A stretch of 64,000 nucleotides of DNA, from assembly GCA_017993055.1 (NCBI GenBank), contig JAGONM010000002.1, positions 68,821 through 132,820 of the forward strand, written 5' to 3'. Source of the stretch: Armatimonadota bacterium. GTDB lineage: Bacteria; Armatimonadota; UBA5829; DTJY01. This document shows positions 6,963 to 25,541 of the stretch, piece by piece. Every line of letters starts with the position of its first letter. Positions within the stretch are counted from its first letter, which is position 1. The position numbers were made by a program, and so were the translations under genes. The notes under the pieces are model-generated. The model did not search any database, was not told where the DNA came from, and saw only the letters and a list, made by a program, of their open reading frames with translations.

Positions 6963-7643
6963 TCACTTCTCAATCCGCTGGTCCTCGCGGACGATCTTCC
7001 TCGCGCCGCCTTCGTGCGACTTCGACCAGTTGGCGAGGGGAGCGGGCTCGGCAAGGCGGTCGAGTTGTCCGAGCGCCTTCAGGCGGTCGTAGATCAACTG
7101 CCAGGCGCAGTCCATGTCCGGGTCAACCTCGCATTTCCCCTCGCGAGCGCCGCCGCACGGGCCGCTGAGCTGTGCCTTCGAGCAGCGGGTGATCGGGCAG
7201 ACCGCGCCGTAGCTCCCGAGCACGCACGTCCCGCATCCGACGCACTTCTCGGTCCAGATTCCCTGCTGCTGCAGGAGTCCCATGAACAGCGTATCGAGTC
7301 CGGCGTAGACCGGCTTGTTCGGGAACCGCTCCGCGATCGCCTGAACGCCGACACCGCATCCGAGAGAGAGCACCGCGTCGGCCTCGAGTATCTCGTCGAG
7401 CGCGTCCTCGATGAACTGGTTCTCGCACTGGCGCTCGATTGTGGCCTCGACGATCGTCTGTTCCGACGCGCCCTTGTCCGTCTTGTTCGCGATCCTGAGC
7501 GCGGAACTGATCATCCCGACCTCGCGCTCTCCGCCCGCTAGGCAGACGGTTACGCAAGTGCCGCATCCGAGCACGAGCACGCGCGGGTAATCGGCGAGCA
7601 AGGCCTTCAGGTCCTGTATGTGTTTGCGGTGAGCAACGATCAT
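6963..7643 (-). CDS. metV: methylene-tetrahydrofolate reductase small subunit MetV-like (zinc-ribbon/MTHFR_C-type Cys-rich protein)
   Basis: Cys motifs LGCGTCVTVC, LGCGVGVQ, CVGCGTCV, CPITRCSKAQLSGPCGG...GKCEV are typical of the MTHFR C-terminal-like MetV of acetogen MetFV-HdrABC-MvhD clusters. Start moved from the track start (7679) to ATG at 7643, which has a perfect AAGGAG RBS 6 nt upstream and leaves the 7677-7699 hairpin intergenic. Confidence 0.65.
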   Translation of the reverse strand: MIVAHRKHIQDLKALLADYPRVLVLGCGTCVTVCLAGGEREVGMISSALRIANKTDKGASEQTIVEATIERQCENQFIEDALDEILEADAVLSLGCGVGVQAIAERFPNKPVYAGLDTLFMGLLQQQGIWTEKCVGCGTCVLGSYGAVCPITRCSKAQLSGPCGGAREGKCEVDPDMDCAWQLIYDRLKALGQLDRLAEPAPLANWSKSHEGGARKIVREDQRIEK

Positions 7644-7676
7644 GTCAGACTCCTTTGGGGGAGTGGTCGAGGCCGT

Positions 7677-7699
7677 CATGCTGAACCAAGTTCAGCATG
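7677..7699. repeat. near-perfect palindrome CATGCTGAAC-CAA-GTTCAGCATG in the mvhD-metV junction (intra-operon stem-loop / operator-like)
   Basis: 10-bp arms with 3-nt loop, read directly. A closely related motif recurs at 16584-16634 inside the same operon. Confidence 0.6.
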
Positions 7700-7715
7700 A
7701 CAACGTCCATTACTC

Positions 7716-8132
7716 CTATACTCCAACGCGGACCGGATTCGGTCCCAGGCGCTTGATTCTCTCCGTCATTGTCTCGACTATCTCCGCGAAGCGGTTGCCC
7801 TCAGCCGAAGAGAGGTTGAACATCTCCAGCCGATCGCCCTCGATGCCGGCTTCGGCGAGTACTTCCTTCGCCAGACCGACCCGCTTCTTCGCGTAGAGAT
7901 TGCCCTCCTCGAAGTGGCATCCTCCCTCGAGGCAGCCAGCGACTATCACGCCGTCCACGCCGTTCTCGAAGGCCTTCATGACGTAGTCTATGTCCACCTT
8001 CCCGGTGCACGGGAGGCGCAGGACGCGCACATTCGGCGGATACTGCAGGCGTGTCGAGCCGGCGAGGTCCGCCGCCGCGTATGCGCAGTAATGGCAGCAG
8101 AGAGCAAGGATTCTCGGCTCGAAATCAGTCAT
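7716..8132 (-). CDS. mvhD: MvhD/FlpD-like [2Fe-2S] electron-transfer subunit (methyl-viologen-reducing hydrogenase delta-subunit family)
   Basis: RILALCCHYCAYAAAD ... LPCTGKVD ... AGCLEGGCHF is the characteristic FlpD/MvhD Cys pattern. 138 aa. Start overlaps the hdrA stop. Confidence 0.8.
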   Translation of the reverse strand: MTDFEPRILALCCHYCAYAAADLAGSTRLQYPPNVRVLRLPCTGKVDIDYVMKAFENGVDGVIVAGCLEGGCHFEEGNLYAKKRVGLAKEVLAEAGIEGDRLEMFNLSSAEGNRFAEIVETMTERIKRLGPNPVRVGV

Positions 8133-11100
8133 CAGCGAGTCACCGCCTCCAGGAGGGCTTCGATTGCGGCCTCCAACTGTTTGTCAGTGAAGTTCCGGAG
8201 CTGGATCGCCTTCGCCGGGCAGGCCGCCGCGCAACTTCCGCAGCCCATGCACTTCGCCGCGACGATCTCCACCCTGTTCTTGCCGTTGACCTCGCTGATC
8301 TCGGGGGCGTCGTAAGGGCAGACCTTCACGCAGGTAAGGCATGAGACGCATTTCCGAACGTCCACGTGGCTCACCTGGCCACCGACGACCATAGTCTTCT
8401 TGCTCAGGATCGTCGCAGCGCGTCCCGCGGCCGCTCGTCCCTGCTGGATGTTCTCCATCGTCGTCTTCGGCGAGTGGGCGCTTCCGCAGAGGAAGATGCC
8501 CTCCGATGCGAAGTCCACCGGCCGAAGCTTCACATGCGCCTCGAGGAAGAACCCGTCCGCGTTGATCGGTATCTTCGCAAGCTCCGAGACGTCCACGTTG
8601 TCGGTCGCGGGCGAAGTGCCTGTCGAGAGAACGAGCAGATCGACCGCCAGGTCCATCGGGACGCCGAGGTCGGGCTCGGTGAACTTGATCCGGAGCGACC
8701 CATCGTTCGAGACCTCGGGCGGCTGCTCGGGATCGTACCGTACGAAGAGCACGCCGAGCTCACGCGCCTTCTGGTAGAGCAGTTCGTTCGATCCGTACGT
8801 CCGCATGTCGCGATAGAGAACGAGTACGTTCGCGCTCGGACTCTGTTCCTTGATGCGGATCGCGTTTCTCACGGCGTCAATGCAGCACATTCGGCTGCAG
8901 AACGGCCGCTCTTCATTGCGGGAGCCGACGCACTGGATCATGGCGACAGTCGGCTTGTCGGACAGCTTGAGATCGCCGGACGCGAGCCTCTTCTCCATCT
9001 CTCGCTGAGTCATTACTCTGGCGTCGTGGCCGTAGAGGTACTCGGTCGGGGCGTACTCCGTGCCGCCGACGGCGACTATCAGGACGCCGTGCTCGACCTT
9101 CTTCGGTCCCTCAGGCGCCTCAATCTCGCTCTCGAACTCCCCGACATGGCCCGAAAGCGTGTCGAGCTTCGACGAGAGATACGTCGAGATCAGCGGATGC
9201 TCCTCGACCATCTTGACCAGTCGTGCGAGCAGTTCCGTCTCCGCGGATCCCTTCAGTCGGCCCCCGAGCGCGTCGGTTTTCTCGACCAGATGCACGCGGA
9301 ATCCCTGATTCGCGAGGGAAATCGCTGCCGTCATTCCGCTCGGGCCGCCTCCGAGAACGAGCGCAGACTGAGTGACCGGCAGCTCCTCGCTCGTGAGCGA
9401 TGTCAATCTCGACGCGCGGGCGACGGCCATTCGCACGAGATCAATGGATTTCTCGGTCGCGGCTTCGGGATCGGCCGAATGCACCCACGAGCATTGGTCG
9501 CGGATGTTCGCCATGTCTACTAGGAACGGGTTCAGGCCGCACTCCCTCGCCGTATCTCGGAAAAGCGCCTCGTGAGTCCTCGGCGTGCAGGACGCGACGA
9601 GCAGGCGGTTGAGGTGATGCTCCTCGATCAATTCCTTGATTCGATCCTGCGTGTTGTCGGCGCAGGCGTAGATCGCGTTCTCGGCATAGGCGACGAACGG
9701 CATGCCTTTCGCCGCCTCGACTACCTTCTCGACATCGACGACCGACGAAATGTTCGTGCCGCAATGGCATATGAACACGCCGATCCTCGGCGGCGCATCG
9801 GCGAAATCGTGTTCGCGCGGATAAGTCTTCTCGACGACCATCGTGCCACGGGCGGGCGCAAGAAGCTCCATCGCCATCGCCGCAGCCGCGCTCGCCTGTG
9901 CGACGGTCTCGGGAATGTCCTTCGGCTCCTGGAACGCGCCGGCGACGAAGACACCGTTCCGAGACGTCGCCACCGTGCCGTCGGTCTGGCAGAATCCGCA
10001 CTCATTGATCTGGACGCCGACCGCGCCCGCGGTCCGGATCGCTTCATCGCTCGGCCTTATGCCGGTCGAGAGCACCACGATGTCGAACTCTTCGTCCACC
10101 GGGACTCCGTCCTTGATGTAGGAGAGCCTGAGCGACTTCGAGCCCGGCATCTCGACGACGCGAGAGACCATGCTCCGCTCGAACCGGACACCGTCGGTCT
10201 TCGCGCGCTCGAAGTATCTGTCGAAATCCTTGCCGTACGCGCGGATATCCGTGTAGAAGATCGTTGCGTCGAGTTCGGGGGAGTGGCTCTTCGCCACGAC
10301 CGATTCCTTGATCGCCGCCATGCAGCAGACCGCCGAGCAGTACGGCTTCTCGCTCGACACATCTCTTGAGCCGACGCACTGAATGAAGGCGATGCGCTTG
10401 GCCTCCTCGCCGTCGGACGGCCTGATCACGTGCCCGCCGAACGGCCCGCTCGCGGAGAGAATGCGCTCGAACTGTACGTTGGTGACGACGTTGGGATACC
10501 TCCCGAAGCCGAACTCGCCGCGCAGTCGAGCGTCGAACTCCTCGTATCCGGGCGACAGGATGACCGCACCGACCTCGATGTCGCGGACGGTGTCCTTCAT
10601 CTCGTGGTTGATCGCTTTGGGCTGGCACGCCTTCACACACTCCATGCACTCGCAGCAGATCCCGCAGGCGAGGCATCTCTCCGCCTCGGCGATCGCATCC
10701 GCGACCGCATAGCCCCTGGCGTGATCGGCCTCGACCCTGACGCTCTTCATGCGCTTCTCGCGGTACTGGGCTCTCTCCAGGTTGCGGTGATCGTCGTCGG
10801 TCCAGATGCGCGAATCGGGCTCGCGCCCCTCGGCGAGGTCTTCACCGTTGATGAACCTGTCTATTGATACGGCCGCCCGGATTCCCGCGCCGACCGCCTC
10901 GCTCAAGGTCCCTGCACCCGCGCACACGTCGCCGCCCGCGAAGATGCCCGGCTTGTTGGTGGCGAGGGTGATCGGGTCGACCTTGAGCAGGCCCCACTTG
11001 TTCAACTCGATCTCCGATCCCTCGCAGAATGCGAGGTCCGGCGTCTGGCCCGTCGCCACGACGGCCTCGTCGAATTCTATCATATGCTCGGAGCCCTCGA

Positions 11101-12517
11101 CGGGCTCGGGCCTTCTGCGGCCGGACGCGTCGCGCTCGTCAGAAAGCTTCATCTTGAGGCATTCGATCCCGGTGAGGACGCCGTCCTTGCCCACGAACCG
11201 CTTTGGGTTCGTGAGGAAGACGAACTTCACGCCCTCTTTGATCGCGTCCTCGACCTCCACCGGGTCGGCGGGCATCTCGCGCTTCGTCCGGCGGTAGACG
11301 ATCGTCACTTCGTTCGCGCCGAGCCGGAGCGCGGTGCGTGCGATATCCATTGCCGCGTTGCCAGCTCCGATGACCGCGACCTTCTTGCCGATCTCGACCT
11401 TCTCGCCGAGGTTGACCTGCTTGATGAACTCGATGCCGGGCCGAACGCCCTTGAGGTCTTCGCCCTCGATGCCGAGCCCCGAACTCTTCTGCGCGCCGAC
11501 TCCGACGAAGACTGCCTCGTAATCCTTCAGCAGGTCGTCGAGGGTCAGCCCGGGCCCGACCGGCGTGTCATACTTCACCTCGACGCCGAGATCGAGGATG
11601 TGGCCAATCTGGTCGTCAAGAATGTCTCTGGGAAGTCGGAAGTCGGGGATGCCGGCCCTCATCATGCCGCCCGGGACCGGAAGCGCCTCGAGGATCGTGA
11701 CGCCGTATCCCTTGCGCGCGAGGTAGTCCGCCGCGCCGAGTCCCGCCGGACCGCATCCGATGATCGCGACCCTCTCGGATCGGCTGACAGGAGCGTTCTC
11801 AGTGGTGCCGGCCGGAGCCTGATCGAGCGCGAACTTCTTCAGCTCGCGGATCGAGACCGGATCGCCGTATCGTCCCTGCTGGCATTCGGCCTCGCACGGG
11901 CGATGGCAGACGTAGCCGCAGATGAGGGGCAGGGGATTATCCTTGCGGATGATCTCCGCCGCCTCAGCGAACTTGCTCTTCGCGATCAACGCTATATACG
12001 CCTGAGCGTTCTGGCCCATTGGACACGCCGACACGCACGGCGGGCGCTTGCGTTTGTCGATGACGTGAGCGTTCGGGACCGCCTGCGCGGTAATCTTGTG
12101 GATCGCGGTCGTTTTGCTCAGCCCGCGGTTGAAGTCGTCCGGCACCATGACGGGGCAGACTTTCTCGCAGTCGCCGCACGCGTTGCACTTCTCGATGTCC
12201 ACGAAGCGGGCCTTCTGCCGCACCTTCACGCGAAACGCACCGGGCTCGCCGCTCATCTCTTCGATCTGTGACTGAGTAAGGATCTCGATGTTCAGATTGC
12301 GAGCTGCCTCGACGAGCTTCGGCGAGACGATGCAGGTGGCGCAGTCCCCGGTCGGGAAGGTCTTGTCGAGTTGCGCCATCTTCCCGCCGATGGTCGGCGA
12401 CTTCTCGACGAGGTAGACCCTGAACCCCGAGTTGGCGAGGTCGAGCGCCGACTGAATCCCGGCGATTCCGCCTCCACACACCATTACTGCGCCAACCGTA
12501 TTCTTGTCCGTACTCAT
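8132..12517 (-). CDS. hdrA: giant HdrA-type flavoprotein fusion: HdrA FAD/Fe-S module + embedded GltD/NfnB-like NAD(P)H-FAD module + second HdrA-type module + C-terminal 2x[4Fe-4S] ferredoxin
   Basis: N-terminal GAVMVCGGGIAGIQSALDLANSGFRVYLVEK (FAD). HdrA inserted Cys motif TFPTGDCATCI. GltD/NfnB-like block (DNPLPLICGYVCHRPCEAEC ... RVAIIGCGPAGLGAADYLARKG ... VAVIGAGNAAMDIAR). Two HdrA signatures FIQCVGSRDVSSEKPYCSAVCCMAA and MIQCVGSRNEERPFCSRMCCIDA. Second FAD fold ALVLGGGPSGMTAAISLANQG. C-terminal CVSCLTCVKVCP / CMGCGSCAAACP. 1461 aa. Confidence 0.85.
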   Translation of the reverse strand: MSTDKNTVGAVMVCGGGIAGIQSALDLANSGFRVYLVEKSPTIGGKMAQLDKTFPTGDCATCIVSPKLVEAARNLNIEILTQSQIEEMSGEPGAFRVKVRQKARFVDIEKCNACGDCEKVCPVMVPDDFNRGLSKTTAIHKITAQAVPNAHVIDKRKRPPCVSACPMGQNAQAYIALIAKSKFAEAAEIIRKDNPLPLICGYVCHRPCEAECQQGRYGDPVSIRELKKFALDQAPAGTTENAPVSRSERVAIIGCGPAGLGAADYLARKGYGVTILEALPVPGGMMRAGIPDFRLPRDILDDQIGHILDLGVEVKYDTPVGPGLTLDDLLKDYEAVFVGVGAQKSSGLGIEGEDLKGVRPGIEFIKQVNLGEKVEIGKKVAVIGAGNAAMDIARTALRLGANEVTIVYRRTKREMPADPVEVEDAIKEGVKFVFLTNPKRFVGKDGVLTGIECLKMKLSDERDASGRRRPEPVEGSEHMIEFDEAVVATGQTPDLAFCEGSEIELNKWGLLKVDPITLATNKPGIFAGGDVCAGAGTLSEAVGAGIRAAVSIDRFINGEDLAEGREPDSRIWTDDDHRNLERAQYREKRMKSVRVEADHARGYAVADAIAEAERCLACGICCECMECVKACQPKAINHEMKDTVRDIEVGAVILSPGYEEFDARLRGEFGFGRYPNVVTNVQFERILSASGPFGGHVIRPSDGEEAKRIAFIQCVGSRDVSSEKPYCSAVCCMAAIKESVVAKSHSPELDATIFYTDIRAYGKDFDRYFERAKTDGVRFERSMVSRVVEMPGSKSLRLSYIKDGVPVDEEFDIVVLSTGIRPSDEAIRTAGAVGVQINECGFCQTDGTVATSRNGVFVAGAFQEPKDIPETVAQASAAAAMAMELLAPARGTMVVEKTYPREHDFADAPPRIGVFICHCGTNISSVVDVEKVVEAAKGMPFVAYAENAIYACADNTQDRIKELIEEHHLNRLLVASCTPRTHEALFRDTARECGLNPFLVDMANIRDQCSWVHSADPEAATEKSIDLVRMAVARASRLTSLTSEELPVTQSALVLGGGPSGMTAAISLANQGFRVHLVEKTDALGGRLKGSAETELLARLVKMVEEHPLISTYLSSKLDTLSGHVGEFESEIEAPEGPKKVEHGVLIVAVGGTEYAPTEYLYGHDARVMTQREMEKRLASGDLKLSDKPTVAMIQCVGSRNEERPFCSRMCCIDAVRNAIRIKEQSPSANVLVLYRDMRTYGSNELLYQKARELGVLFVRYDPEQPPEVSNDGSLRIKFTEPDLGVPMDLAVDLLVLSTGTSPATDNVDVSELAKIPINADGFFLEAHVKLRPVDFASEGIFLCGSAHSPKTTMENIQQGRAAAGRAATILSKKTMVVGGQVSHVDVRKCVSCLTCVKVCPYDAPEISEVNGKNRVEIVAAKCMGCGSCAAACPAKAIQLRNFTDKQLEAAIEALLEAVTR

Positions 12518-12526
12518 ACTCGTACT

Positions 12527-13384
12527 CTACCTCGCCAACACTCTCGACGGGTCCGTCATCAACTTCCCGATTCCCAGCTCGTCGTCGGAGAGTCCGAACG
12601 CGTGCCCCAGAAGCTGGGTGAAGTAGAACACCGGCAGGCCGAACTGCTCGCCGGTCGCCTTTTCGATATCCGACTGCCGCAGATCGAGGTTCGTCTGGCA
12701 GAGCGGGCAGGCCACCGCGATGCAGTCCGCTCCGCTCTCCTTGGCCATCCGCAGGATCTCGCCGCTAAGGCGCTTGACGGTGTCGGTTCGCGTGATAGAG
12801 AAACTCGCGCCGCAGCACTCCGTCTTGTACGGCCATTCGATCGGCTCCGCGCCCGCGGCCTCCAGGAGAATTTCCATCAACTGCGGGTCCTCCGGGTGGT
12901 CGGCGATGCTGAGTTCGCTCGGGCGGGTGAGTAGACAGCCGTAGTAGCATGCGACCCTCATCCCGCCGAGGGAGCGCGTGACCGCGTCCTTGACTTCCTT
13001 GGGGCCGATGTCCTCCAGAAGCACCTGCAGCAGATGCCGCACCCTGACCTTGCCCTCGTACTCGCGCCCGATCGTCTTCGCCACCTCAGCGCGCAGCGAC
13101 TCATCCTCTCTTATCGCAAGGTTCGCCGAAGCGAGCCGTCCGTAGCAGGCCGCGCAGCACACGACTACGTCCTGACCGGCGTCCTCGGCGATCGCCAGGT
13201 TTCGGGCTGGAAGCGACGCCGCCAGCAGAGGATCCGTGGCATGAGCCGGAGACGATCCACAGCACGTCCAGCCGGGAATCTCCTCGAGCCTGACTCCGAG
13301 CGCCTTGGCGACTGCGAGTGTCGAGGCCTGGAAGTCCGAAGCCGTCGATTCGAGCGAGCATCCCGGGAAGAAGGAGTATTTCAT
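12527..13384 (-). CDS. hdrB: heterodisulfide reductase subunit B-like (two CCG domains)
   Basis: CCG-domain Cys signatures WTCCGSS, VVVCCAACYG, CYYGCLLTRP, ECCGASFS, ACPLCQTNLD. 285 aa. Confidence 0.85.
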   Translation of the reverse strand: MKYSFFPGCSLESTASDFQASTLAVAKALGVRLEEIPGWTCCGSSPAHATDPLLAASLPARNLAIAEDAGQDVVVCCAACYGRLASANLAIREDESLRAEVAKTIGREYEGKVRVRHLLQVLLEDIGPKEVKDAVTRSLGGMRVACYYGCLLTRPSELSIADHPEDPQLMEILLEAAGAEPIEWPYKTECCGASFSITRTDTVKRLSGEILRMAKESGADCIAVACPLCQTNLDLRQSDIEKATGEQFGLPVFYFTQLLGHAFGLSDDELGIGKLMTDPSRVLAR

Positions 13385-13944
13385 CGCCGTGCCCTCCTTG
13401 CGTTCCGGACTCTCTCAAAGATCGAGGCCACCGCGCCGCGTCCCTCGGTCGATGGCGGGAGAAGCTTCATCTTGCCCTTCAGCAACATCGACGGGAACTT
13501 GGCGAGATCGCTCCAGAAGTCTCTCGCCCGGAGCTTGTATACGGCCATGAGCCCGAGTTCATACGACCGGCCGAACCGCTTCACCGAGCCGAGCATCGTC
13601 TCGTTGAAGATCTTCACGCGTTCCAGGTCGCCGGGCGCCGACTCCGCCATCGAGCGCAGAGCATCCACCAGGGCAGGGGTATCAACCTGCATCGGGCAGC
13701 GCGACACGCAGGTGTTGCACGATATGCACGCCCAGATCGCCTTGCTCTCGAGGATCTGCTTCTTCATCCCCAGCGCGGCCATCCGGTTGAGCTGATGCGG
13801 AAGGATATCCGTCTCTTGGCGCATCGTGCAGCCCGACGAGCATCTTCGGCACTGCAGGCAGAGCGTCAGGTTCAGCCGCCCTTCAGGGTCGACCTCCCTG
13901 AGCAGGCCATTGTCTATCCTCTCAATGGTGATTGTCTTACTCAT
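13381..13944 (-). CDS. hdrC: heterodisulfide reductase subunit C-like (2x[4Fe-4S] ferredoxin)
   Basis: CLQCRRCSSGCTM and CISCNTCVSRCPM motifs. Start refined to ATG at 13944 (MSKTITIE...), which overlaps the upstream gene stop by ATGA. The longer track ORF would run 111 nt into the upstream CDS. Confidence 0.75.
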   Translation of the reverse strand: MSKTITIERIDNGLLREVDPEGRLNLTLCLQCRRCSSGCTMRQETDILPHQLNRMAALGMKKQILESKAIWACISCNTCVSRCPMQVDTPALVDALRSMAESAPGDLERVKIFNETMLGSVKRFGRSYELGLMAVYKLRARDFWSDLAKFPSMLLKGKMKLLPPSTEGRGAVASIFERVRNARRARR

Positions 13945-16558
13945 CTGATCCCTTACCAGCGTTCGAATCATCGTCCACGTGGCCGACGACCCCGACCTTC
14001 GACGCCGGAGCGACCTTTCGGTAGACCTTCGCCGGCTCGCGAAGTTCTCCGTCAACCGTCAGCAGCCGGGAGACCGGGATGCCGAAGAGTTGCTCGTTGT
14101 CCTCGAGATACGGCAGGATCAGCTTCCAGTCCGCATCTGACAACTCGCGGTACTCGCCGCCGTTGAGCTGTTCGTCGTCGCACAGCCGATGCGGGTCTCG
14201 GACGTAGATCGCTCCACCCGAGGCCAGCGAGAACAGGTTCGAGCCGGAGTACGGCGTCTCCAGGTCGGTGACGTTGCCGTCATCATCGAACTTGATGCCG
14301 TTCAGTATGACGAACCCCCCGCCCGTGAGCGGATCGCCCGCCATGAATGATTCCGCCAGGAAGTCGAGGCATGTGCCGTTGATGACCGCTTTCGGCCGTC
14401 CCACGCCGTTGATCAACGGTCGTCCGGCGGCGTTGCCCTTGACGAAGACCTTGCCGCCCTTCGCGCCGTACATGAACGTCTGGCCGACGTCGCCGTGGAT
14501 CACGAGGCGGCCTTCCTTGATGATCTGGCCGACCTGGTCTTGGGCGTTCCCATGAACGATGACCGTCATGCCGTCGAGGCCCGAGCCTAGGTAGTCGCCG
14601 GTGCTCCCGTAGGCGTCTATGGTGACATCGTGCGTCGCCGGGCCGAACCCGCAGCCGAGGAACCTCTGCCCCACGTAGCCGTGGCAGATGAACCGCTTCC
14701 ATCCCAGTTCCTCAGCTCTGACCACCAGCCGGGAGTCGCAGTCGTCGCCCTCGGGCGGGAAGTCGTGCGCGTTCACGACGAGCACTTCCTCCGGGCCAGT
14801 GGGGGCGCGGAGCGCATCCCTGGTCTCCCAGTCGATGCGCGCATATACTGAAGAGGGTTCTCCGGCGATAGACGGCATGGACTCGAAGACCGCTCTCAGG
14901 CATCCGTTCAGCAGCTGGAGGATCGTGCTTCGCTTGGTCGTTCCGGTCGGATACCGGCGGTCGATCAAGAGAGTCAGTCCGTTGATCGCGGCCGTGCGCT
15001 CGGAGTCAGTCATCGGACCGGCGGCCAACTCGGAGCACAGGCTCACCAATCCCTTCATCTCCGCCGTCAGAGCCGCCGACTTCCCGGCCTCGAAAAGCGC
15101 GAATCCGGTCTCATCAGCAAGAATCTCGGCGGTCGCGTGTCCCAGTCTGCAATCCGCGATCTGCAGTCTGCAGTCCGGCCTCTCGCCCGCCTTGACTGTC
15201 TTCTGCCTTCCAAACTTATCCACGCAGGAGAGCTTGTAGCCGCCGTTGCCGTCCGGACTCACGTTGAAGATGAACGATCCGCCGTCGGTGTAGCTTCCTC
15301 CGCGGGCGTTCCAGTACTCATCGGCGACCGTGCAGAACCGACTGTCTTCCTTCGCCAGGCTCGCGAGTGTGGCGTCGATGGCTTGCTTTTCGCTGCAGAC
15401 AAGGCCGATCTGCACCTCGCCGTCCTGGATCGCGAACACCTGAGGCCGAAGCATCGCCGTGTCCGTGATGCCTAGGAGTTGGAACGCATCGTTCGCCGCG
15501 TCGTTGCGTGCAATGATGAAGAACCACGGACCGTCCGGCGAGCCGTGGATGTGGCTCGTCTGGATGCGGTGGTACGGGTCCTTCTTCGCTTCGGGCAGCA
15601 TATCGAAGTCGCGCTCCATCGTAGGCGCAAGGCCCTCGATGATGTACTCCAGCGGGTACTTGTACACACGGTTCCAGAGGTCAAACACGAGGATCGAGAC
15701 CTCGGTGTCCGTCAGGAAGAGCGGCCTGATGTTCCTCTGAGCCAAGTACTCGGTTACCGAATAGTAGTTCGCGAAGTCGCCGTTGTGGACCAGCGCCTCG
15801 TTCAGCCCGCAGAACGGGTGAGCGCCGCCGGGATGCCAGACTCGACCGCGAGTCGGGTATCGCTGGTGGGCGATCCAGACGTGCGCCTTGAAATCCTCGA
15901 GCTTGTAGTATGTGACGATCTGCTCGGCATAGCCGACGATCTTGAGGATCAGCATGTTCCGTCCCTGCGAGAGGACGAAAGCCTGCTTGTCACCGAGCGA
16001 TGCGTAGTACTTCGAGTTGAGCTCGAACGAGTTCTGGTTGACGAACTCATCCTCGATGTCTCGTGCCGGCAGTCCGGCCAGGCCGCGCTCGTCGGCAAAC
16101 TTCTTGATGGCATCGGGCTTCGCGCGCACGAAGTACTGCATGACGTCCGGCGGCTGGACCTCCATGCCCGGGATATCGTGGAAATCCTCGATTCGCGGGA
16201 TCATCTGCGCGTGGTCGACGTTGAACATCGGGTTGATGAACTCGGCTTCGACGGCGTTACGGCAGGCAGGATCGAGAAGTGCGATCTGCAGGATGTAGTC
16301 ATCCCGCAGAATCTCTTTCGAGACCCCAAGCCGCTCGGCATCGAGCCCGACGGCCGCGATGCCTCCGCCCTTACCGTTGCCGCGGTTGTGCATCTGGACA
16401 GACGGCTCGTAGATGTGCCTGCCGCTTACCGGGATGCTGCACGCGAACCCGGTGACCCCGCAGCCGCCTTCCTCCTCGGTGTGAGGAGGCTGCTGGCATT
16501 TCCATCCGTCCATCATCCAGCGTCGGCTCTCTAAGATTCTCTTCGCGAAATCGTTCAT
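13937..16558 (-). CDS. glutamate-synthase-like fusion: N-terminal class-II glutamine amidotransferase domain (GltB1-type) + C-terminal GXGXG domain (GltB3-type)
   Basis: N-terminal GGCGVTGFAC (Ntn Cys) ... HQRYPTRG ... LVHNGDFANY are GATase-2 motifs. C-terminal GCGFGPATHDVTIDAYGSTGDYLGSGLDGMTVIVHGNAQDQVGQIIKEGRLVIHGDVGQTFMYGAKGGKVFVKGNAAGRPL is the glutamate-synthase GXGXG domain. 873 aa. Confidence 0.75.
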   Translation of the reverse strand: MNDFAKRILESRRWMMDGWKCQQPPHTEEEGGCGVTGFACSIPVSGRHIYEPSVQMHNRGNGKGGGIAAVGLDAERLGVSKEILRDDYILQIALLDPACRNAVEAEFINPMFNVDHAQMIPRIEDFHDIPGMEVQPPDVMQYFVRAKPDAIKKFADERGLAGLPARDIEDEFVNQNSFELNSKYYASLGDKQAFVLSQGRNMLILKIVGYAEQIVTYYKLEDFKAHVWIAHQRYPTRGRVWHPGGAHPFCGLNEALVHNGDFANYYSVTEYLAQRNIRPLFLTDTEVSILVFDLWNRVYKYPLEYIIEGLAPTMERDFDMLPEAKKDPYHRIQTSHIHGSPDGPWFFIIARNDAANDAFQLLGITDTAMLRPQVFAIQDGEVQIGLVCSEKQAIDATLASLAKEDSRFCTVADEYWNARGGSYTDGGSFIFNVSPDGNGGYKLSCVDKFGRQKTVKAGERPDCRLQIADCRLGHATAEILADETGFALFEAGKSAALTAEMKGLVSLCSELAAGPMTDSERTAAINGLTLLIDRRYPTGTTKRSTILQLLNGCLRAVFESMPSIAGEPSSVYARIDWETRDALRAPTGPEEVLVVNAHDFPPEGDDCDSRLVVRAEELGWKRFICHGYVGQRFLGCGFGPATHDVTIDAYGSTGDYLGSGLDGMTVIVHGNAQDQVGQIIKEGRLVIHGDVGQTFMYGAKGGKVFVKGNAAGRPLINGVGRPKAVINGTCLDFLAESFMAGDPLTGGGFVILNGIKFDDDGNVTDLETPYSGSNLFSLASGGAIYVRDPHRLCDDEQLNGGEYRELSDADWKLILPYLEDNEQLFGIPVSRLLTVDGELREPAKVYRKVAPASKVGVVGHVDDDSNAGKGSDE

Positions 16559-16583
16559 GTTATCTCACTACGACCGTCGTGCC

Positions 16584-16634
16584 GAACTTGGTTCAGCATC
16601 CACGGGATTGATCCTGAGTCAAGTTCAGGATGAC
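16584..16634. repeat. two copies of the GAACTTGGTTCAGCAT / CAAGTTCAGGATGAC palindromic motif family in the gltB2-gltB1/3 junction
   Basis: 16584-16599 GAACTTGGTTCAGCAT is identical over 16 nt to the reverse complement of the 7677-7699 element. 16611-16634 ATCCTGAGTCAAGTTCAGGATGAC contains CAAGTTCAGGATGAC, versus CAAGTTCAGCATGAC at 7688-7702. Both sit in a 91-nt gap between translationally uncoupled genes of the same operon. Confidence 0.6.
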
Positions 16635-16649
16635 GGTCCTTGCCGTTCG

Positions 16650-18188
16650 TCAACGCTCGTAGTCCGCATGCTCGAGGAGATCGGATCTCCCTCGAAGCTC
16701 CTTGATATCCTTCATGCCGAACCTGCTCAGTATGTCCACGAGTTGAGTGCGCCACGCGTTCAGCATGTTGATCAGCCGCTGCGTCGCCCACTCGAGCGTC
16801 ATCTTCTCGACCATCTCCGGGTTCGTGGATGCGATGCCTCGCGCGCATCCCTTGCCGCTCTCGCACCTGGCGCAGCGTATACATCCCAGTGCGACCATCT
16901 CCGGCGTGCCTATCACCACACCGTCCGCCCCGAGGGCGATCGCCTTCGCCAGGTCCCACGGCGTGCGCACCCCGCCTCCGACGATGAAGGCCACCTCGTC
17001 CCGGATGCCTTCCTCGACCAGGAAAGTGTGCACCTTGGAGATCGCGTATTCTATCGGCATGGCAATGTTTTTCTTTGCGATCTCTGGGGCAGCTCCCGTC
17101 CCGCCATAACTCCCGTCGAGGTGGATGATGTTTGCGCCTGCGTGATAGGAGCCGACGGCAACCATGTCCACGTCAACCGGGGTCGAGACCTTGCACGAGA
17201 CGAGCGCTCGCGGGTTGATGTGCTTTATCCAGTCCAGATGCTTCTTGTGGTCCTCGACGGAGTAGACGCTGTGGAAAGGGAACGGCGAGAAGAGCGGGGT
17301 CCCCGGCACTGCCTCGCGCATCAGGGCGACGGCGGGCGTATTCTTGTCGCCGAGCAGATGTCCGCCGAGGCCCGGCTTCGCTCCCTGCGCGTACTTGAAC
17401 TCGACAATCGGCGCCATACCGATCGTCTCCTCGCGCACGCCGAACAGGCCCGTCGCCACCTGGGTGATCATGTGCTCGCTGTACGGGAACAGCCGCTCGG
17501 GATAGCCTCCCTCGCCTGTACAACTGAACGTGTTCCATGCCATCGCCGCCCGGGCCTTGGCCAGCATGGTGATGGGGCTGACGGAGCCGAACGACATGCC
17601 GCCGCCGTAGACGGGGATGTCTATGGTGATCTCCGGCCTGCCGTCCTTGCGTTTGTTCAGTTCGATCGAGGTGTTGATCTCGGACGGGTCGGTACGCGGG
17701 CCGCTCTCGGGGAACAGGAACCGCATTCGGTCGAAGCCGCCCCCGGAATTGCCGAACTCCGCCTCCAGTTCTCCGTCGGGCACCTGCCCGGTCTCGGCCA
17801 TGTGCCAGTTGCAGAGTATCAGGTCGGCGGTCCACCGGTAGTCCCCGAGCGACTTGTAGATCGGGGTAGTCTCGATGCGGAGCGCCTTCTGAGGGCAGAT
17901 TACGACGCAGTACGTCCCGTTCGCCTTGCACTTCTCGGCGGTGCACAGATGATCCAACCCGCTGAGGAAGTCCACGTAGCCTTCTCGGCGCACGTGAACG
18001 CCGCGCGGGCAGACCTCGATGCACTTCCCGCACTTGATGCATGCCGCGCTCCGTTGGATGCGGTACTTGCTGAGGTTGTTCCGGAACCTGTCGGGCGCCG
18101 GACGGACCTCGCGCTTCGGGGGGTATTCCACCCCGAGATCCGCAACTTTCCCCGTATGTATCCTGCCTGGATCTATGGTCGAAGCCAT
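16650..18188 (-). CDS. archaeal-type glutamate synthase FMN/Fe-S subunit (GltB2-like) with N-terminal 2x[4Fe-4S] ferredoxin domain
   Basis: N-terminal CIKCGKCIEVCP ... CVVICP. FMN/synthase domain motifs GGGMSFGSVSPITMLA, IIHLDGSYGGTGAAPE, IVGGGVRTPWDLAKAIALGADGV, and a Cys cluster CIRCARCESGKGC. 512 aa. Confidence 0.8.
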   Translation of the reverse strand: MASTIDPGRIHTGKVADLGVEYPPKREVRPAPDRFRNNLSKYRIQRSAACIKCGKCIEVCPRGVHVRREGYVDFLSGLDHLCTAEKCKANGTYCVVICPQKALRIETTPIYKSLGDYRWTADLILCNWHMAETGQVPDGELEAEFGNSGGGFDRMRFLFPESGPRTDPSEINTSIELNKRKDGRPEITIDIPVYGGGMSFGSVSPITMLAKARAAMAWNTFSCTGEGGYPERLFPYSEHMITQVATGLFGVREETIGMAPIVEFKYAQGAKPGLGGHLLGDKNTPAVALMREAVPGTPLFSPFPFHSVYSVEDHKKHLDWIKHINPRALVSCKVSTPVDVDMVAVGSYHAGANIIHLDGSYGGTGAAPEIAKKNIAMPIEYAISKVHTFLVEEGIRDEVAFIVGGGVRTPWDLAKAIALGADGVVIGTPEMVALGCIRCARCESGKGCARGIASTNPEMVEKMTLEWATQRLINMLNAWRTQLVDILSRFGMKDIKELRGRSDLLEHADYER

Positions 18189-18200
18189 CTAAAACCCCTG

Positions 18201-19556
18201 TCAGATCTGAACTTTCCGTGTTCCGAAGATCGGGCCGAAGCAGTCCCGTTCCAGGTCCTCGAAGAACATCGCACGGCCGACTTCCCCGCGGAGCCGTCGA
18301 ACCTCGCGTATGCCCATCGCCCCCATCATCTCCAGCAACTGGCTGTGCCACGCACCGATCAGGTTCACGATCCTCTGAACGGCGTAGTCGTGATCAATGT
18401 CCGCCAGCCCGACCGGGCACTGGATACCTTCGGTGCAGTTCCTGCACACCCGGCACTCGAGGGCAATCATCAGCGGGATGTCAACTGCAACCGCATCGGC
18501 GCCGCAGATTATCGTTTTTGCCACATGTTCGGCGAGCGCGATCCCACCACTGGAGACGATCGTAACGGCATCCCGGTTTCCACGTTCGACGAAAGCCTGG
18601 TGGAGCGCCTGCACGGCCCTTGTGATGTGAGTTCCGTCGGTTGCGTTCCCGTGCCAGTCGGCACAGGAGTGGATCGCATCTACGCCTTGTTCCGTGAGTT
18701 CGAGTGCCCGTGCGATCGAGTCGGCACCGAGCGGTAGACGCACCATGGCGACCAGATCACCGTTGGCCTCTCTTGCCTGTCGGACCTGTCGGACCACGTC
18801 GGACGAGTCGGACCATTCCACGAGTGGCGCGCCCGAAGGGATGGCGCCGTCTCTCACGTGCGGTGCGGCCGCATCGTGATCCATCTGCGTATCGGTTACT
18901 GCCCGTGTTCCCAGCGCCTCGGCGGCGTCGAGCATCGCTCTCGTCACCTGCTCCGACGGGGTGTGCCAGGGCAGGAGGTCGAAAAGGATCGGAATCGGCA
19001 CGTCAATCTGTGTCGGATACGGCTCAGCAAGCGAACCATCGGGGTTGAACGAGAGCGACGGGAGTTTCCTGCCGATCTCGACCTGCGTGCTGATGTACTC
19101 CCTGCCGTGGATTCCGTCGCGCGTCGGGCGGACGATTTCCGACATGTCGGTCAGGATCGCGTCGAACCCCGGGCCCATGAACGGGCCGGCGTAACCTGCG
19201 CCCGACACGGGTATCCTGCCGGTCTCTGCCTGGAACCAGGTGCCGGATATGATGTCCGGCGTCCAGACCCCGTCGCCAAGCCCCTCGAACTCCGGGTTGA
19301 CCTCCTGGGTCAGCAGGCCTTTTGTGCAGGATTGCACGCAGCAGAGGCATCCCTTGCACTCGTAGAGGTAGTCAACGTAGTCGCTTGCGCCCTGAAGCCT
19401 GTCGCGCTCACCGTCGTATACGCTGTAAGCGCACTCCCGCTTCACGCAGTTGTGGCAGGCGGAGCAGTCCTCTCTCCAGTCAACTATCCCGTATTTGCCG
19501 ATCACCTTGTGTTTCGGCGGCGCCTGCGCAGTGTGGATATGGTACTTGGCCGGCAT
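18201..19556 (-). CDS. divergent GltB2-like paralog (ferredoxin + glutamate-synthase-like TIM barrel with degenerate FMN/active-site motifs)
   Basis: Same architecture as 16650-18188 (N-terminal CSACHNCVKREC ... CKGCLCCVQSC, C-terminal CRVCRNCTEGIQC, SSGGIALAEHVAKTIICGADAV). The GGGMSFG and DGxxGGTG motifs are not recognisable. Confidence 0.55.
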   Translation of the reverse strand: MPAKYHIHTAQAPPKHKVIGKYGIVDWREDCSACHNCVKRECAYSVYDGERDRLQGASDYVDYLYECKGCLCCVQSCTKGLLTQEVNPEFEGLGDGVWTPDIISGTWFQAETGRIPVSGAGYAGPFMGPGFDAILTDMSEIVRPTRDGIHGREYISTQVEIGRKLPSLSFNPDGSLAEPYPTQIDVPIPILFDLLPWHTPSEQVTRAMLDAAEALGTRAVTDTQMDHDAAAPHVRDGAIPSGAPLVEWSDSSDVVRQVRQAREANGDLVAMVRLPLGADSIARALELTEQGVDAIHSCADWHGNATDGTHITRAVQALHQAFVERGNRDAVTIVSSGGIALAEHVAKTIICGADAVAVDIPLMIALECRVCRNCTEGIQCPVGLADIDHDYAVQRIVNLIGAWHSQLLEMMGAMGIREVRRLRGEVGRAMFFEDLERDCFGPIFGTRKVQI

Positions 19557-19557
19557 G

Positions 19558-20406
19558 CTACTTCAGACCCTTCAGAACTTCAAGGGCGAGTGTGGGATTT
19601 CCGCCGATCACGTGGATGCCGCGGACGCCTTCGATGCCCTTGAGGAAGGCGGCCGTCTTCGCGGCCGAATCGGCCCCGACCGCCGAGGTATCCGGTATGT
19701 CGAGCCCCCGGAATTTCGCGACCATTGCCGACGCCTCCTCCGCAGACTCCAGCGGCATGACGGAAGCGATCACGCACATCTTCTCATGGATGCCGCGCGC
19801 TCTGACGAGGCCCATCCACTCCTCGAAGCGATTGGTGTTGAATACGGGTTGGGTGATGACGAAATCGGCTCCGAGAGCTGCCGCCCTGTCGAGTGTGATG
19901 ACCTGCAGATCAAGCGGGTCCGAGAACGGGTTGGTCTCCACCCCGAGCAGCATCTCGACCGGAGCATCCAGGGGTTCACCGTCGGAGAGTCTTCCGCCCC
20001 TTCTCATGGTGTCGGCCACTTGAACGAGCTGCAGGGGGTCTATGTCGTAGACTCCTCTTGCGTCGCCGGCCGATGTCAAAGTCTGATGCTTGCCTGCGAG
20101 GCAGAGGATGTTGCGTATGCCCATCGAGGCCGCCCCCAGCAAGGTTGACTGGAGGGCGATCCGGTTGAGGTCGCGTGTCAGGATGTGTAGGATCGGCTCG
20201 GCTCCCGCTTCCAGGACATGCCCGCATGCGGCGAGGCTGCTCATGCGGGGGCCGTCCTCGCTCTCGATGACGTTGACTGCGTCCACGAGAGCGTTGAGCC
20301 GGGTCGCGCACTCCTTGATTCCGGCCGCGTCCGCGCCTCTCGGCGGGTGGCACTCGCCCGTGACTACGAACTTACCGCCCTTTACTGCCTGCGCCAGATC
20401 ACTCAT
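19558..20406 (-). CDS. metF: 5,10-methylenetetrahydrofolate reductase catalytic subunit (acetogen/MetF-type)
   Basis: About 280 aa TIM barrel with FVVTGECHPP, LLGVETNPF, DFVITQPVFNTNRFEEW motifs typical of MTHFR. 2-nt gap to the upstream gene. Confidence 0.8.
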   Translation of the reverse strand: MSDLAQAVKGGKFVVTGECHPPRGADAAGIKECATRLNALVDAVNVIESEDGPRMSSLAACGHVLEAGAEPILHILTRDLNRIALQSTLLGAASMGIRNILCLAGKHQTLTSAGDARGVYDIDPLQLVQVADTMRRGGRLSDGEPLDAPVEMLLGVETNPFSDPLDLQVITLDRAAALGADFVITQPVFNTNRFEEWMGLVRARGIHEKMCVIASVMPLESAEEASAMVAKFRGLDIPDTSAVGADSAAKTAAFLKGIEGVRGIHVIGGNPTLALEVLKGLK

Positions 20407-20798
20407 TCAGTCACCTCGTCTGCGAAACGCGTCATCTCATCAACCGCCGAGTCGAAACTGCGCGGCTCCATACTGCCCGGCTGGAACATCCGGACGCAGT
20501 CGGGACCCAGGCCCGATTCTGTAAGATACTCGCGTGCGGTCTCCATGCGCTTGCCGGCCCTCAAATTCCCCTCCAGCAACCTGCACTCGCCTTCGGGGCA
20601 GGCGAGCAGGCATACCTTGGAAGCGCCGCCCTCGAATGCCTTCAGGATGTAGCGGGGGTCAATCCGCCCGCTACACGGCACCGGTTCGATCGCGACGTCG
20701 GGCCGATGTCCCAGCTTCGCCAGCGAATCCGGGACCCGTCCGTTCGGAACGGAGTTGCGGCAGTAGTACACGCGGACAGCTATTCGGTCTCCCTGCAT
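20403..20798 (-). CDS. mvhD: second MvhD/FlpD-like [2Fe-2S] subunit, first gene of the operon
   Basis: RIAVRVYYCRNSVPNG ... PCSGRIDPRYILKAFEGGASKVCLLACPEGECRL is FlpD/MvhD-like. Start set to the in-frame ATG at 20798, because the track start at 20840 is GTG on the printed sequence. Stop overlaps the metF start (ATGA). Confidence 0.7.
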   Translation of the reverse strand: MQGDRIAVRVYYCRNSVPNGRVPDSLAKLGHRPDVAIEPVPCSGRIDPRYILKAFEGGASKVCLLACPEGECRLLEGNLRAGKRMETAREYLTESGLGPDCVRMFQPGSMEPRSFDSAVDEMTRFADEVTE

Positions 20799-20831
20799 AT
20801 TCGGTGTCCCCGTCTCCCAGACAATGCAAAG

Positions 20832-20871
20832 CCCACCCACAATCCACCTGTCCCGGTGGTACTATGGGTGG
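20832..20871 (-). promoter_or_regulatory. structured 5' leader of the operon (nested hairpins CCCACCCA...TGGGTGG / CCACC...GGTGG)
   Basis: Nested inverted repeats read directly. They lie between the predicted promoter (about 20960-20988) and the mvhD2 ATG (20798). Confidence 0.35.
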
Positions 20872-24170: not shown

Positions 24171-24372
24171 GGTACTCCTGCTCCTTCTCTACAAAAGTTC
24201 GGGCGAGAGTTTCACTCCCGCCCATGATACCGGTGTTCGCCCCAGCCCCAGGAGACTGAAGTCACGGCCACAAAGGCGCGAAGTCCGCCTCCGTGGAGTG
24301 GGTGCTTCAGTATCCGCAGGGACAATTCGTGCAGTTGTTGCCCCGGTTTCAACCGCCCGGATGATTTCGAGG

Positions 24373-25425
24373 CTACACTCCCTTACGCAGCTTGATGTAA
24401 TGCCGCGCCACCTTCAGATCTTCGAGCGCCTCGGGCGCGTCGCAGAGTGGCTTCATCTCACCCTTGACCGCCGCCACGAAGTTCATGGCCTGCTGCCTCA
24501 TCGCGTGGACCCACGGGAGCATCGGAACGATCGTCTCCGGAGTCGCGCCGCCTCCCGGGTCGCGCATGATCTCGACCGTTCCGGCGCGGTTTGAAGCCAG
24601 TGGAGCGGGGAGCGTGAGCTTGATGTAGCCGTTCTCGAACGCGATCAGCGCGGATTCCTGCCAGTCTACCGTAGTGCGGTACGGGGTCATCTCGATCACG
24701 CCGGTGACGCCGCTCTCGCTCTGGGCCGCGAGCATCACGCCGGTCGGATCGGCATAGGTGACCTGATACCGCTCGCCGAGCAGGTGGGCCATCAGGTTCA
24801 CCTGGTGGATGTAGTAGTTCACGAACGCGATGTAGGCCTTGTAGGTCTCATCGTCCATGTCGTCGGCGGGCGGATCGAACTCCAGCGGCGGGACCGGCTC
24901 GTTGATGCCTATGTGGCCGAGGAAGCCGTTGGCCACCCAGTCTCCGGCGGGCATCAGGATGCGGACGTATTTCAGCTTGCCAAGTTCGCCGGACGCCTTC
25001 AGACGGTCGATCTCAGCCTTGGCGTACATCGTGGCCGGATCGCTTCTCTTGTGGTAGCCGACCATGTGCCATGTCTTCCCGGCCTTGAGCGCCTTGATGA
25101 TCTTCTCGCCGGCCTCGATCGAGCCCGCGAGCGGCTTCTCCGTGAAGATCGGGATGCCAGCCTTCGCCAGATCGGAGATCAGCACTCCATGCCGCGTGAA
25201 CGGCTGGGACGCCACGATGCCGTCGAGCTTCTCGTTCGCCAGCATCTCCTCATGGTTCTTGTAGACCTTCGGGATGCCGTATCGTTCGCCGACCAGCTTC
25301 CCCTGCTGCTCTTTGACCTCCGCGATCGCGACGACCTCGCATTCCGGGACCGTCACGTAGTTCCTGAGATGAGCGCACTGGCCCATCCCGCCGACGCCGA
25401 CAAAACCTATCCGTACCTTGTCCAT
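24373..25425 (-). CDS. Gfo/Idh/MocA-family oxidoreductase (cytoplasmic)
   Basis: MDKVRIGFVGVGGMGQCAHLRNY Rossmann start, EKPLA motif. 350 aa. Confidence 0.8.
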   Translation of the reverse strand: MDKVRIGFVGVGGMGQCAHLRNYVTVPECEVVAIAEVKEQQGKLVGERYGIPKVYKNHEEMLANEKLDGIVASQPFTRHGVLISDLAKAGIPIFTEKPLAGSIEAGEKIIKALKAGKTWHMVGYHKRSDPATMYAKAEIDRLKASGELGKLKYVRILMPAGDWVANGFLGHIGINEPVPPLEFDPPADDMDDETYKAYIAFVNYYIHQVNLMAHLLGERYQVTYADPTGVMLAAQSESGVTGVIEMTPYRTTVDWQESALIAFENGYIKLTLPAPLASNRAGTVEIMRDPGGGATPETIVPMLPWVHAMRQQAMNFVAAVKGEMKPLCDAPEALEDLKVARHYIKLRKGV

Positions 25426-25513
25426 GTGTCATCTCCGTTCAAATGGAATCAAGGTTTACCTTTCGACTGCCTGCCTGTAAATCCTCCCGCCGAATTCGTC
25501 GGAAAACAAGTGC

Positions 25514-25541
25514 TTGACAGCGCCGGAATAAGTGATAGAAT
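25514..25541 (+). promoter_or_regulatory. sigma70-like promoter TTGACA-16 nt-TAGAAT driving the serine-hydrolase/XRE module
   Basis: TTGACA at 25514-25519 and TAGAAT at 25536-25541, in a locally AT-richer 235-nt intergenic region. An AGGAGA RBS precedes the ATG at 25660. Confidence 0.5.

Follow-up and report, generated by a model that had tools for sequence, protein, structure and literature searches.

The gene gltB1/3 lies on the minus strand of a 64,000-nucleotide stretch of DNA from an Armatimonadota bacterium (the window; assembly GCA_017993055.1, contig JAGONM010000002.1, positions 68,821 to 132,820), where it is the fifth of ten genes in an operon transcribed from the same strand. Its open reading frame (ORF) covers window positions 13937..16558, with the ATG at 16556-16558 and the TAA stop at 13937-13939, and encodes 873 amino acids. 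The product is a GltB1-GltB3 fusion, as an earlier sequence-only reading of this DNA had proposed and as Pfam domains and structural matches to glutamate synthase alpha chains bear out. It begins with an N-terminal extension (codons 1-32; 16463..16558), which is followed by a class-II, i.e., N-terminal nucleophile (Ntn), glutamine amidotransferase domain (residues 33-~450; 15209..16462) recognised with phmmer, hhalign and an alignment to GltS, by a mostly helical linker (residues 451-600; 14759..15208) and by a GXGXG beta-helix of the GltB3/FwdC-like type (PF01493, residues 629-792, E=1.8e-15), which together with the C-terminal tail and the stop occupies 13937..14758 and has FwdC and the GltS alpha C-terminal domain among its sequence matches. 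The sole class-II amidotransferase cysteine of the ORF is Cys33 (TGC codon, 16460-16462), which presumably becomes the N-terminal nucleophile upon maturation. The encoded chain starts with MNDFAKRILESRRWMMDGWKCQQPPHTEEEGG|CGVTGF, the residues abutting the cysteine being EEEGG|CGVTGF. The sequence-only reading had placed the cysteine at about residue 33 behind some 30 residues and had seen no in-frame Met near it; both points hold, as 32 residues precede Cys33 and the nearest in-frame starts on its 5' side are Met15 and Met16, with no ATG, GTG or TTG between codon 16 and the cysteine. An in-frame TGA is located three codons 5' of Met1.

In a comparison with two close relatives, whose proteins are 88-90% identical to it, codons 1-33 of gltB1/3 carry 8 synonymous and 2-4 non-synonymous changes, and the 60 nucleotides 5' of ATG1 are merely 28-30% identical to those of the same two relatives, which makes the conservation boundary at ATG1 a sharp one. 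Because of this synonymous bias and the low upstream identity, coding is judged to begin at Met1, and on these comparative grounds the ATG at 16558 is assigned as the translation start. A start at Met15 or Met16 was ruled out by the conservation of residues 1-14, the synonymous-biased change and the boundary at ATG1. A non-canonical start directly before the cysteine had been named in the sequence-only reading as evidence that would overturn it. In a genomic set of 69 loci, including Armatimonadota, Desulfobacterota, Dehalococcoidia, Acidobacteriota, Planctomycetota, Latescibacterota, Nitrospirota and others, no start codon abuts the cysteine; codon -1 is Gly throughout, the closest possible ATG, GTG or TTG lies at least 5 codons upstream, and in 26 loci it lies at least 30 codons upstream. 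A start beside Cys33 was therefore rejected as well, and the true start codon of the gltB1/3 family can be regarded as fixed. Among 120 database homologues checked for the position of the cysteine it is internal in 117, most commonly at position 33. Roughly one in six of these 120 is called from an internal Met (the equivalent of Met15/16) or from a later position, whereby the conserved N-terminal helix (window 16511-16558) is cut off; these short entries include P0001, P0012, P0022 and P0024, and P0001 is 99% identical to the window protein, yet counts 858 amino acids as an internal Met was chosen. Their start codons are likely mis-annotated through the choice of the gene caller.

The purine-rich GAGGAGGAAGG just 5' of the Cys codon resembles a Shine-Dalgarno site. 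The Glu-Gly-Gly codons in this stretch vary synonymously in 68 loci (GAA/GAG; GGC/GGT/GGG/GGA) with the amino acids fixed, which argues that the protein, rather than a ribosome-binding site, is the target of selection. An internal ribosome-binding site was ruled out by this variation across taxa, and the purine run is best read as a by-product of coding.

The extension is translated, occurs family-wide and is under selection that starts at ATG1; ending in E-G-G-Cys, it is present in every Cys-bearing relative examined, across many phyla. For its analysis an alignment of 52 close sequences and a set of 39 more distant Cys-bearing relatives were used. It evolves faster than the catalytic domain: residues 1-16 have a top-residue fraction of 0.44 and residues 17-29 one of 0.32, compared with 0.79-0.89 in the catalytic domain. 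Residues 3-16 (16511..16552) are predicted from an AlphaFold2 model and from conservation to form an amphipathic helix with the pattern hydrophobic-hydrophobic-x-[S/T]-Arg12-x-x-hydrophobic, modelled as helices 3-11 and 13-16 with block values of the predicted local distance difference test (pLDDT) of 79 and 73. Arg12 (16523-16525) is kept in 52/52 close sequences and in 38 of the 39 more distant relatives, position 8 is I or L in 52/52, and position 15 is M, L or F in 51/52. A variable Pro-rich or polar linker leads from the helix to the acidic end Glu30-Gly31-Gly32 (16463..16471), which precedes the proposed scissile bond Gly32-Cys33 and is kept in 52/52. In the model, residues 23-32 of this linker have pLDDT below 50 and are predicted to be disordered, and a disordered linker ending in Gly-Gly would suit a strained, accessible scissile bond.

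Two other roles for this region were considered and ruled out. The string 'SRRWMM' in the extension is superficially like a twin-arginine motif, but only Arg12 is conserved (position 13 is Arg in 20/52) and there is no hydrophobic h-region; the 17 residues after the Arg pair are polar, Pro-rich and acidic, unlike the S/T-R-R-x-F-L-K motif, h-region and A-x-A of signals of the twin-arginine translocation (Tat) pathway, and a Tat or Sec signal was thus excluded. A pairing of Cys33 with Cys40 as metal or cluster ligands was dismissed since 11/52 sequences have Ser or Ala in place of Cys40.

The alignment to glutaminase domains that had been suggested along with the sequence-only reading was run, and the oxyanion Asn-Gly and the substrate-binding Arg are conserved. 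Using phmmer against the glutaminase domain of E. coli GlmS (1xff), Arg233, Thr236, Asn259, Gly260 and Asp284 correspond to Arg73, Thr76, Asn98, Gly99 and Asp123, respectively. Arg233 (15860-15862) also corresponds to Arg210 of Azospirillum GltS, in which Asn259-Gly260 aligns to the HNGE motif; the oxyanion motif is formed by His258-Asn259-Gly260 (15779-15787), and Asp284 (15707-15709) is the equivalent of the GlmS residue that binds the substrate amino group. With hhalign against E. coli GltB, QMHNRG pairs with RMQHRG, HQRYPT with HQRFST and VHNGDF with AHNGEI. Arg59 (16382-16384), Arg233, Thr236, Asn259-Gly260 and Asp284 are invariant in 52/52 close and 39/39 more distant Cys-bearing relatives. 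The class-II nucleophile motif C-G-[IV]-x-G at the first beta-strand is present, as Cys33 lies in an invariant CGVTGF and a strand (residues 35-45) follows. As judged from these alignments, the glutaminase active site of the window protein is intact, and its amidotransferase domain is a divergent class-II member with an insertion of ~130 residues relative to GlmS. The NCBIfam purF and glmS models match the amidotransferase domain only locally.

The AlphaFold2 model of the gltB1/3 product (m057f0b4ae3a8), computed with 52 homologues, has a mean pLDDT of 79 and a predicted template modelling score (pTM) of 0.80. Foldseek ranks the alpha chains of glutamate synthase (6s6s, 7mfm and 1ofd/1ofe) highest, with GlmS, PurF and EgtC next, and these matches support the four-layer alpha-beta-beta-alpha Ntn fold for the modelled domain with a probability of 0.9-1.0. 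The model places helices at residues 474-559 of the linker, the least conserved part of the protein body (top-residue fraction 0.50). The active-site loops 234-248 and 261-282 are modelled poorly although they contain the most conserved sequence in the protein, which may be owed to the uncleaved pro-segment in the modelled chain.

A natural control for the glutaminase domain is provided by a small sister clade. A search for representatives returned mostly fragments together with the divergent full-length branches, and a follow-up search was added. In six clusters from Anaerolineae metagenome-assembled genomes (MAGs) the cysteine is replaced by Gly; in the same proteins Arg233 is changed to T, G, H or S, His258 to L or F and Asn259 to C, S, D or G, and ahead of the Cys position no more than 10-22 residues are left, with neither Glu30 and Gly31 nor the Arg12 helix. 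The 39 Cys-bearing proteins aligned with them have retained all these features, save Arg12 (38/39). Loss of catalytic residues, which would have favoured a non-catalytic domain, was not found in the window protein and is seen only in this six-cluster clade. In the alignment the Cys-less clade shows a picture of glutaminase decay in this family, and the window protein displays none of it. Since the features of the extension are lost together with the cysteine and the active-site residues, the extension appears to be tied to the chemistry of the cysteine. The signature E-G-G|C-G-V together with Arg233, Asn259-Gly260 and Asp284 separates the predicted active members from this pseudo-enzyme clade. 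The Cys-less genes (P0162, P0271-P0274, P0159) were inspected in two loci on Anaerolineae MAG contigs (L086, 4877-12313, and L087, 5534-12313), where they sit behind GltB2 and a fusion of 1068-1110 amino acids with FAD_binding_4, ferredoxin and Glu_synthase parts; no MetFV or Hdr genes occur in the Cys-less operon of these loci. Apparently, to judge from its gene context, the Glt-like module was reused there with a FAD-linked oxidase and without a glutaminase. Domains 38-42% identical to the amidotransferase domain also occur in the giant proteins P0200 (3016 amino acids), P0233 (2508) and P0243 (3152), in the last of which TEGGCGVCGM stands at residue 79, preceded by an N-terminus that is hydrophobic and resembles a signal.

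Extensions ahead of the catalytic cysteine are found in several class-II enzymes. The coding sequence of gltB in the genome record of E. coli K-12 starts with MLYDKSLERDN|CGFG and thus places 11 residues before the cysteine, and use of an upstream in-frame ATG would give 42. For Azospirillum GltS alpha, the chain 6s6s_A has 1515 residues and the chain 1ea0_A, which starts with Cys1, has 1479, and identical hits to the two are offset by exactly 36. These lengths were taken from the PDB length offset and the E. coli genome record; an open-access statement of GltS pre-sequence lengths was not found in full-text literature searches. PurF from B. subtilis possesses an 11-residue pro-peptide with an acidic end (…NEE|CGV), and its mature crystal chain (1gph) comprises 465 residues. 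GlmS has no pro-peptide and loses only its Met. Of the 'PurF/GlmS-type' precedent invoked by the sequence-only reading, PurF is apt and GltS can be added, whereas GlmS is not a case in point. Precursors of glutamine phosphoribosylpyrophosphate (PRPP) amidotransferase (MEROPS C44) are listed among the Ntn precursors that cleave in cis (Rawlings et al., PMC3207474). As glutamate synthases and some PurF enzymes carry such extensions, the feature of gltB1/3 is an ordinary one, and it is less surprising than the sequence-only reading had suggested, being normal in glutamate synthase large subunits.

E. coli GltB, Azospirillum GltS alpha and the ferredoxin-dependent glutamate synthase (Fd-GltS) of Synechocystis share with the gltB1/3 product the class-II domain with an N-terminal extension before the cysteine, and glutamate synthase alpha chains have in common with it the motifs C-G-[VF]-G-F, M-x-H-R-G, HQR(Y/F)ST and HNG(D/E). 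They also share the amidotransferase, flavin mononucleotide (FMN) barrel and GXGXG beta-helix modules; in the window, however, the alpha subunit is distributed among three genes, the order is permuted, and amidotransferase and beta-helix are directly fused. In contrast to the gltB1/3 product, the extension of E. coli GltB shows neither the Arg12 helix nor E-G-G. Compared with B. subtilis PurF, the proposed pro-peptide has three times the length and includes a helix that is conserved, and the acceptor domain, which is a phosphoribosyltransferase in PurF, is replaced by a beta-helix and a separate FMN subunit. The Arg12 helix is the one aspect for which no match can be given among described pro-peptides. 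Separate polypeptides for the alpha domains are also known from the archaeal-type split glutamate synthase (GltB1/GltB2/GltB3; COG0067/0069/0070) and from the N-methylglutamate synthase MgsABC, and the Joint Genome Institute (JGI) names homologues 'glutamate synthase domain-containing protein 1 / 3'; the window differs from these systems in the fusion of GltB1 and GltB3, in the addition of a second barrel (GltB2b) and in the location of the genes inside a MetFV-Hdr operon.

Taken with the precedents, residues 1-32 are probably the pro-segment of an Ntn amidotransferase precursor that would be cut at Gly32-Cys33, a reading to which we assign a probability of about 0.7. Translation of the gltB1/3 product would start at Met1, and the bond between Gly32 and Cys33 would then be severed; this would probably occur in cis, the Cys33 thiol attacking the peptide bond ahead of it in the manner of other Ntn precursors. 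The alpha-amino group of Cys33, set free by this cut, would act as the general base for glutamine hydrolysis by the mature domain, and GltB2, the FMN/Fe-S subunit, would receive the ammonia. With the fused GXGXG beta-helix and with GltB2b as second barrel, all four domains of glutamate synthase alpha would be in place, and electrons may be delivered by the GltD-like module of HdrL and/or by the MetFV-MvhD-HdrBC module of the same operon. Of the two alternatives that the sequence-only reading had left side by side, processing is favoured by the intact residues and the glutamate synthase precedent, and the non-catalytic domain is disfavoured. Most likely the extension is an ordinary feature within an enzyme family and an operon that are uncharacterised. 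Physiologically, the pre-Cys extension would represent known Ntn precursor biology and argues that the complex uses glutamine-derived ammonia, and N-terminal maturation should be expected by anyone expressing the gltB1/3 product. Several points weigh against this interpretation. The Pfam GATase_6 match (residues 224-293) scores 24.6 bits and stays below the gathering cutoff of 27 bits; the pLDDT of the active-site loops 234-248 and 261-282 is below 50, which makes the modelled geometry of the site uncertain. The cleavage of the X-Cys bond in cis is suggested by precedent, and to our knowledge autocatalytic processing of glutamate synthases is not settled even for the model enzymes. Finally, the invariant Arg12 and the helix amount to more conservation than would be required of a pro-peptide that is discarded, and would fit a retained structural element as well.

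That the extension is retained is indeed the basis of an alternative in which Cys33 has no free alpha-amine and glutamine is not hydrolysed, the domain acting as scaffold, ammonia conduit or regulatory module of a complex that uses free ammonia or performs no amination. An invariant Arg12 and a moderate-confidence helix exceed the needs of a throw-away peptide, the related clade manages without the cysteine, so the module can work without glutaminase chemistry, and the low confidence of the modelled active-site loops would also be in line with it. However, all glutamine-binding and oxyanion residues are invariant across phyla at an overall identity of ~60%, which is hard to explain without catalysis, and where the cysteine was lost these residues decayed and the extension shrank; we also know of no class-II amidotransferase that uses an internal cysteine, as this would conflict with the Ntn mechanism. 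The retained extension is therefore considered unlikely. The Arg12 helix could alternatively serve as a recognition or docking element for a separate protease acting in trans, or the pro-segment could be removed only after partner assembly or Fe-S insertion and not by spontaneous self-cleavage. The maturation of PurF in B. subtilis is tied to the assembly of its Fe-S cluster, and how GltS is processed is not settled, which both leave room for such a route; yet in the 80 loci surveyed the operon has no conserved protease gene, the Gly at -1 and the conserved acidic residues fit a cis-cleavage site, and amidotransferase precursors are listed as cis-cleaving (PMC3207474), which makes processing in trans or upon assembly quite unlikely.

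Highly improbable is an origin of the extension as annotation artefact, with the start beside the cysteine or at Met15/16, or as export (Tat/Sec) signal, to which the internal starts of some database entries (P0001), the Shine-Dalgarno-like GAGGAGGAAGG and the twin-arginine-like 'SRRWMM' could point. The Gly that always precedes the cysteine, the 26 loci without a possible start within 30 codons and the onset of conservation at ATG1 speak against an artefact, and a start at Met16 would still leave 17 residues ahead of the cysteine; export is difficult to reconcile with a single conserved Arg, the missing h-region and partners that are cytoplasmic Fe-S flavoproteins.

The operon (window 6963-20840) has the order mvhD-metF-gltB2b-gltB2-gltB1/3-hdrC-hdrB-hdrL-mvhD-metV and is tightly packed, with intergenic gaps of -8 to +91 nucleotides. 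It starts with a first copy of mvhD (FlpD domain; 20403..20840; PF02662, 1.3e-23) and a metF-like methylenetetrahydrofolate reductase gene (19558..20406; Pfam MTHFR, 1.2e-18), the product of which also matches the MTHFR half of a bifunctional enzyme in NCBIfam (6.7e-41). The following gltB2b (18201..19556) encodes a divergent second TIM-barrel paralogue of the FMN domain, with weak Glu_synthase and Glu_syn_central matches and a flavin-phosphate-binding-like stretch that aligns to L-lactate oxidase and GltS; GltB2b is a possible counterpart of the GltS central domain. The gene gltB2 (16650..18188; Pfam Glu_synthase, E=9e-90) encodes the FMN 'synthase' subunit, at the N-terminus of which lies a 2x[4Fe-4S] ferredoxin domain; bacterial GltS lacks this two-cluster domain. 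GltB2 aligns to residues 856-1170 of Azospirillum GltS alpha (E=9e-48) and keeps the substrate-loop motifs AQGAKPGxGG, SPxPHxxYSxED and GGTGA. Its residues ~420-440, which align to the [3Fe-4S] ligands of GltS, read GCIRCARCESGKGC and contain four cysteines (C-x2-C-x2-C-x5-C) instead of the three-cysteine pattern C-x5-C-x4-C of GltS, which suggests a [4Fe-4S] rather than a [3Fe-4S] cluster. The FMN subunit thus differs from GltS in its four-Cys cluster motif and in the extra 2x[4Fe-4S] domain, and the GltD-like partner is located inside an HdrA-type protein.

Downstream of gltB1/3, the hdrC-like gene (13381..13944; Fer4 and HdrC matches; relatives of 187-193 amino acids) starts with an ATG that overlaps the last 8 nucleotides of gltB1/3 (window 13937-13944; …G ATG AGT AA…), an arrangement that fits translational coupling; the start of its longest ORF (TTG at 14055) is not a likely start. 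It is followed by an hdrB-like gene with CCG domains (12527..13384; Pfam CCG 4e-25; TIGR03288 7e-63) and by hdrL (8132..12517; HdrA2 model 4e-283), which encodes 1461 amino acids and fuses HdrA to a GltD-like NAD(P)H-binding module, with gltA/GltD models matching at ~1e-105 over residues 156-556. HdrL combines a GltD/NfnB-like NAD(P)H-FAD module (residues ~150-560) with a C-terminal two-cluster ferredoxin, and a second MvhD follows in close relatives. An 'HdrL' fusion of heterodisulfide reductase and glutamate synthase was described in Desulfobacterium autotrophicum (PMC2702500), and type III HdrA with an inserted GltD domain was reported in archaea (PMC12054007). Some HdrL proteins carry a selenocysteine. 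In the window, the second mvhD copy (7716..8132) is recognized by its CCHYCAYAAADLAG motif and by FlpD in the same-position gene of close relatives, and metV (6963..7679; PF12225, 1.1e-34), the MTHFR C-terminal/Fe-S partner, ends the operon.

With GltB2b equated on weak matches with the GltS central domain, the operon would encode all four modules of glutamate synthase alpha and a GltD-type beta-like module; this domain set is complete. The predicted activity, for which the conserved substrate-loop motifs speak, is the conversion of glutamine, 2-oxoglutarate and two electrons to two glutamate. Beside the Glt genes a complete MetFV-MvhD-HdrABC gene set is present, its HdrA being of the GltD-containing HdrL type. 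In Moorella thermoacetica, MetFV-MvhD-HdrABC form the 'Met' methylene-tetrahydrofolate reductase complex (Mock et al., 2014, as summarised in PMC6085437). The operon has in common with it the genes for MetF, MetV, MvhD (here twice), HdrB, HdrC and an HdrA-type protein; it differs by three glutamate-synthase-like genes inserted between metF and hdrC and by the GltD module of HdrA. Cleavage of the extension, its autocatalytic nature, glutamine and 2-oxoglutarate as substrates and a physical coupling to MetFV/Hdr are what we infer from these comparisons. One further idea, tentative and on balance doubtful, is that the pro-segment is an assembly-gated switch, so that the glutaminase would stay latent as long as GltB1/3 has not docked on GltB2 and the Hdr module, and that the operon encodes an undescribed electron-bifurcating super-complex of split glutamate synthase and MetFV-MvhD-HdrL(BC), with the strongly exergonic glutamate synthase (GOGAT) reaction as high-potential electron sink. 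If true, methyl-/methylene-tetrahydrofolate redox would be coupled to glutamine-dependent reductive amination.

The neighbourhood was surveyed in 80 loci from many phyla with a 10 kb window. The triad gltB2b-gltB2-gltB1/3 is adjacent in 70/80 loci; within 10 kb, MetV and MvhD occur in 43/80, MetF in 38/80 and HdrL in 18/80 loci, HdrB also being present in some, and many loci combine the Glt triad with MetFV and MvhD with no Hdr genes within 10 kb. The family is large, as 7,658 hits (clustered at 90%) and no fewer than 596 genome stretches match it, and discrete, with 753 representatives at E<=1e-3 among 1.84 billion; its identity across phyla of ~60% is unusually high. Carriers are Armatimonadota, Desulfobacterota (Syntrophales, Desulfobaccales and others), Dehalococcoidia, Acidobacteriota, Planctomycetota and other groups. 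A published description of the Glt triad inside a MetFV-Hdr operon was not found in full-text literature searches. This wider context exceeds the pro-peptide in interest, as glutamate-synthase-like chemistry is connected in this family with a module of the MetFV/Hdr type; the less ordinary parts are the operon, as yet uncharacterised, and the Arg12 helix with its conservation, while the extension itself is textbook for GltS and PurF. The flanks of the operon (window 1165-3519 and 21468-34440) encode, among others, a GspD-like secretin, GFO/IDH/MocA oxidoreductases, a beta-lactamase-fold protein, FG-GAP repeat proteins and GH116, GH4 and GH32-like glycosidases, which look unrelated to the operon and fit a carbohydrate-degrading Armatimonadota genome.

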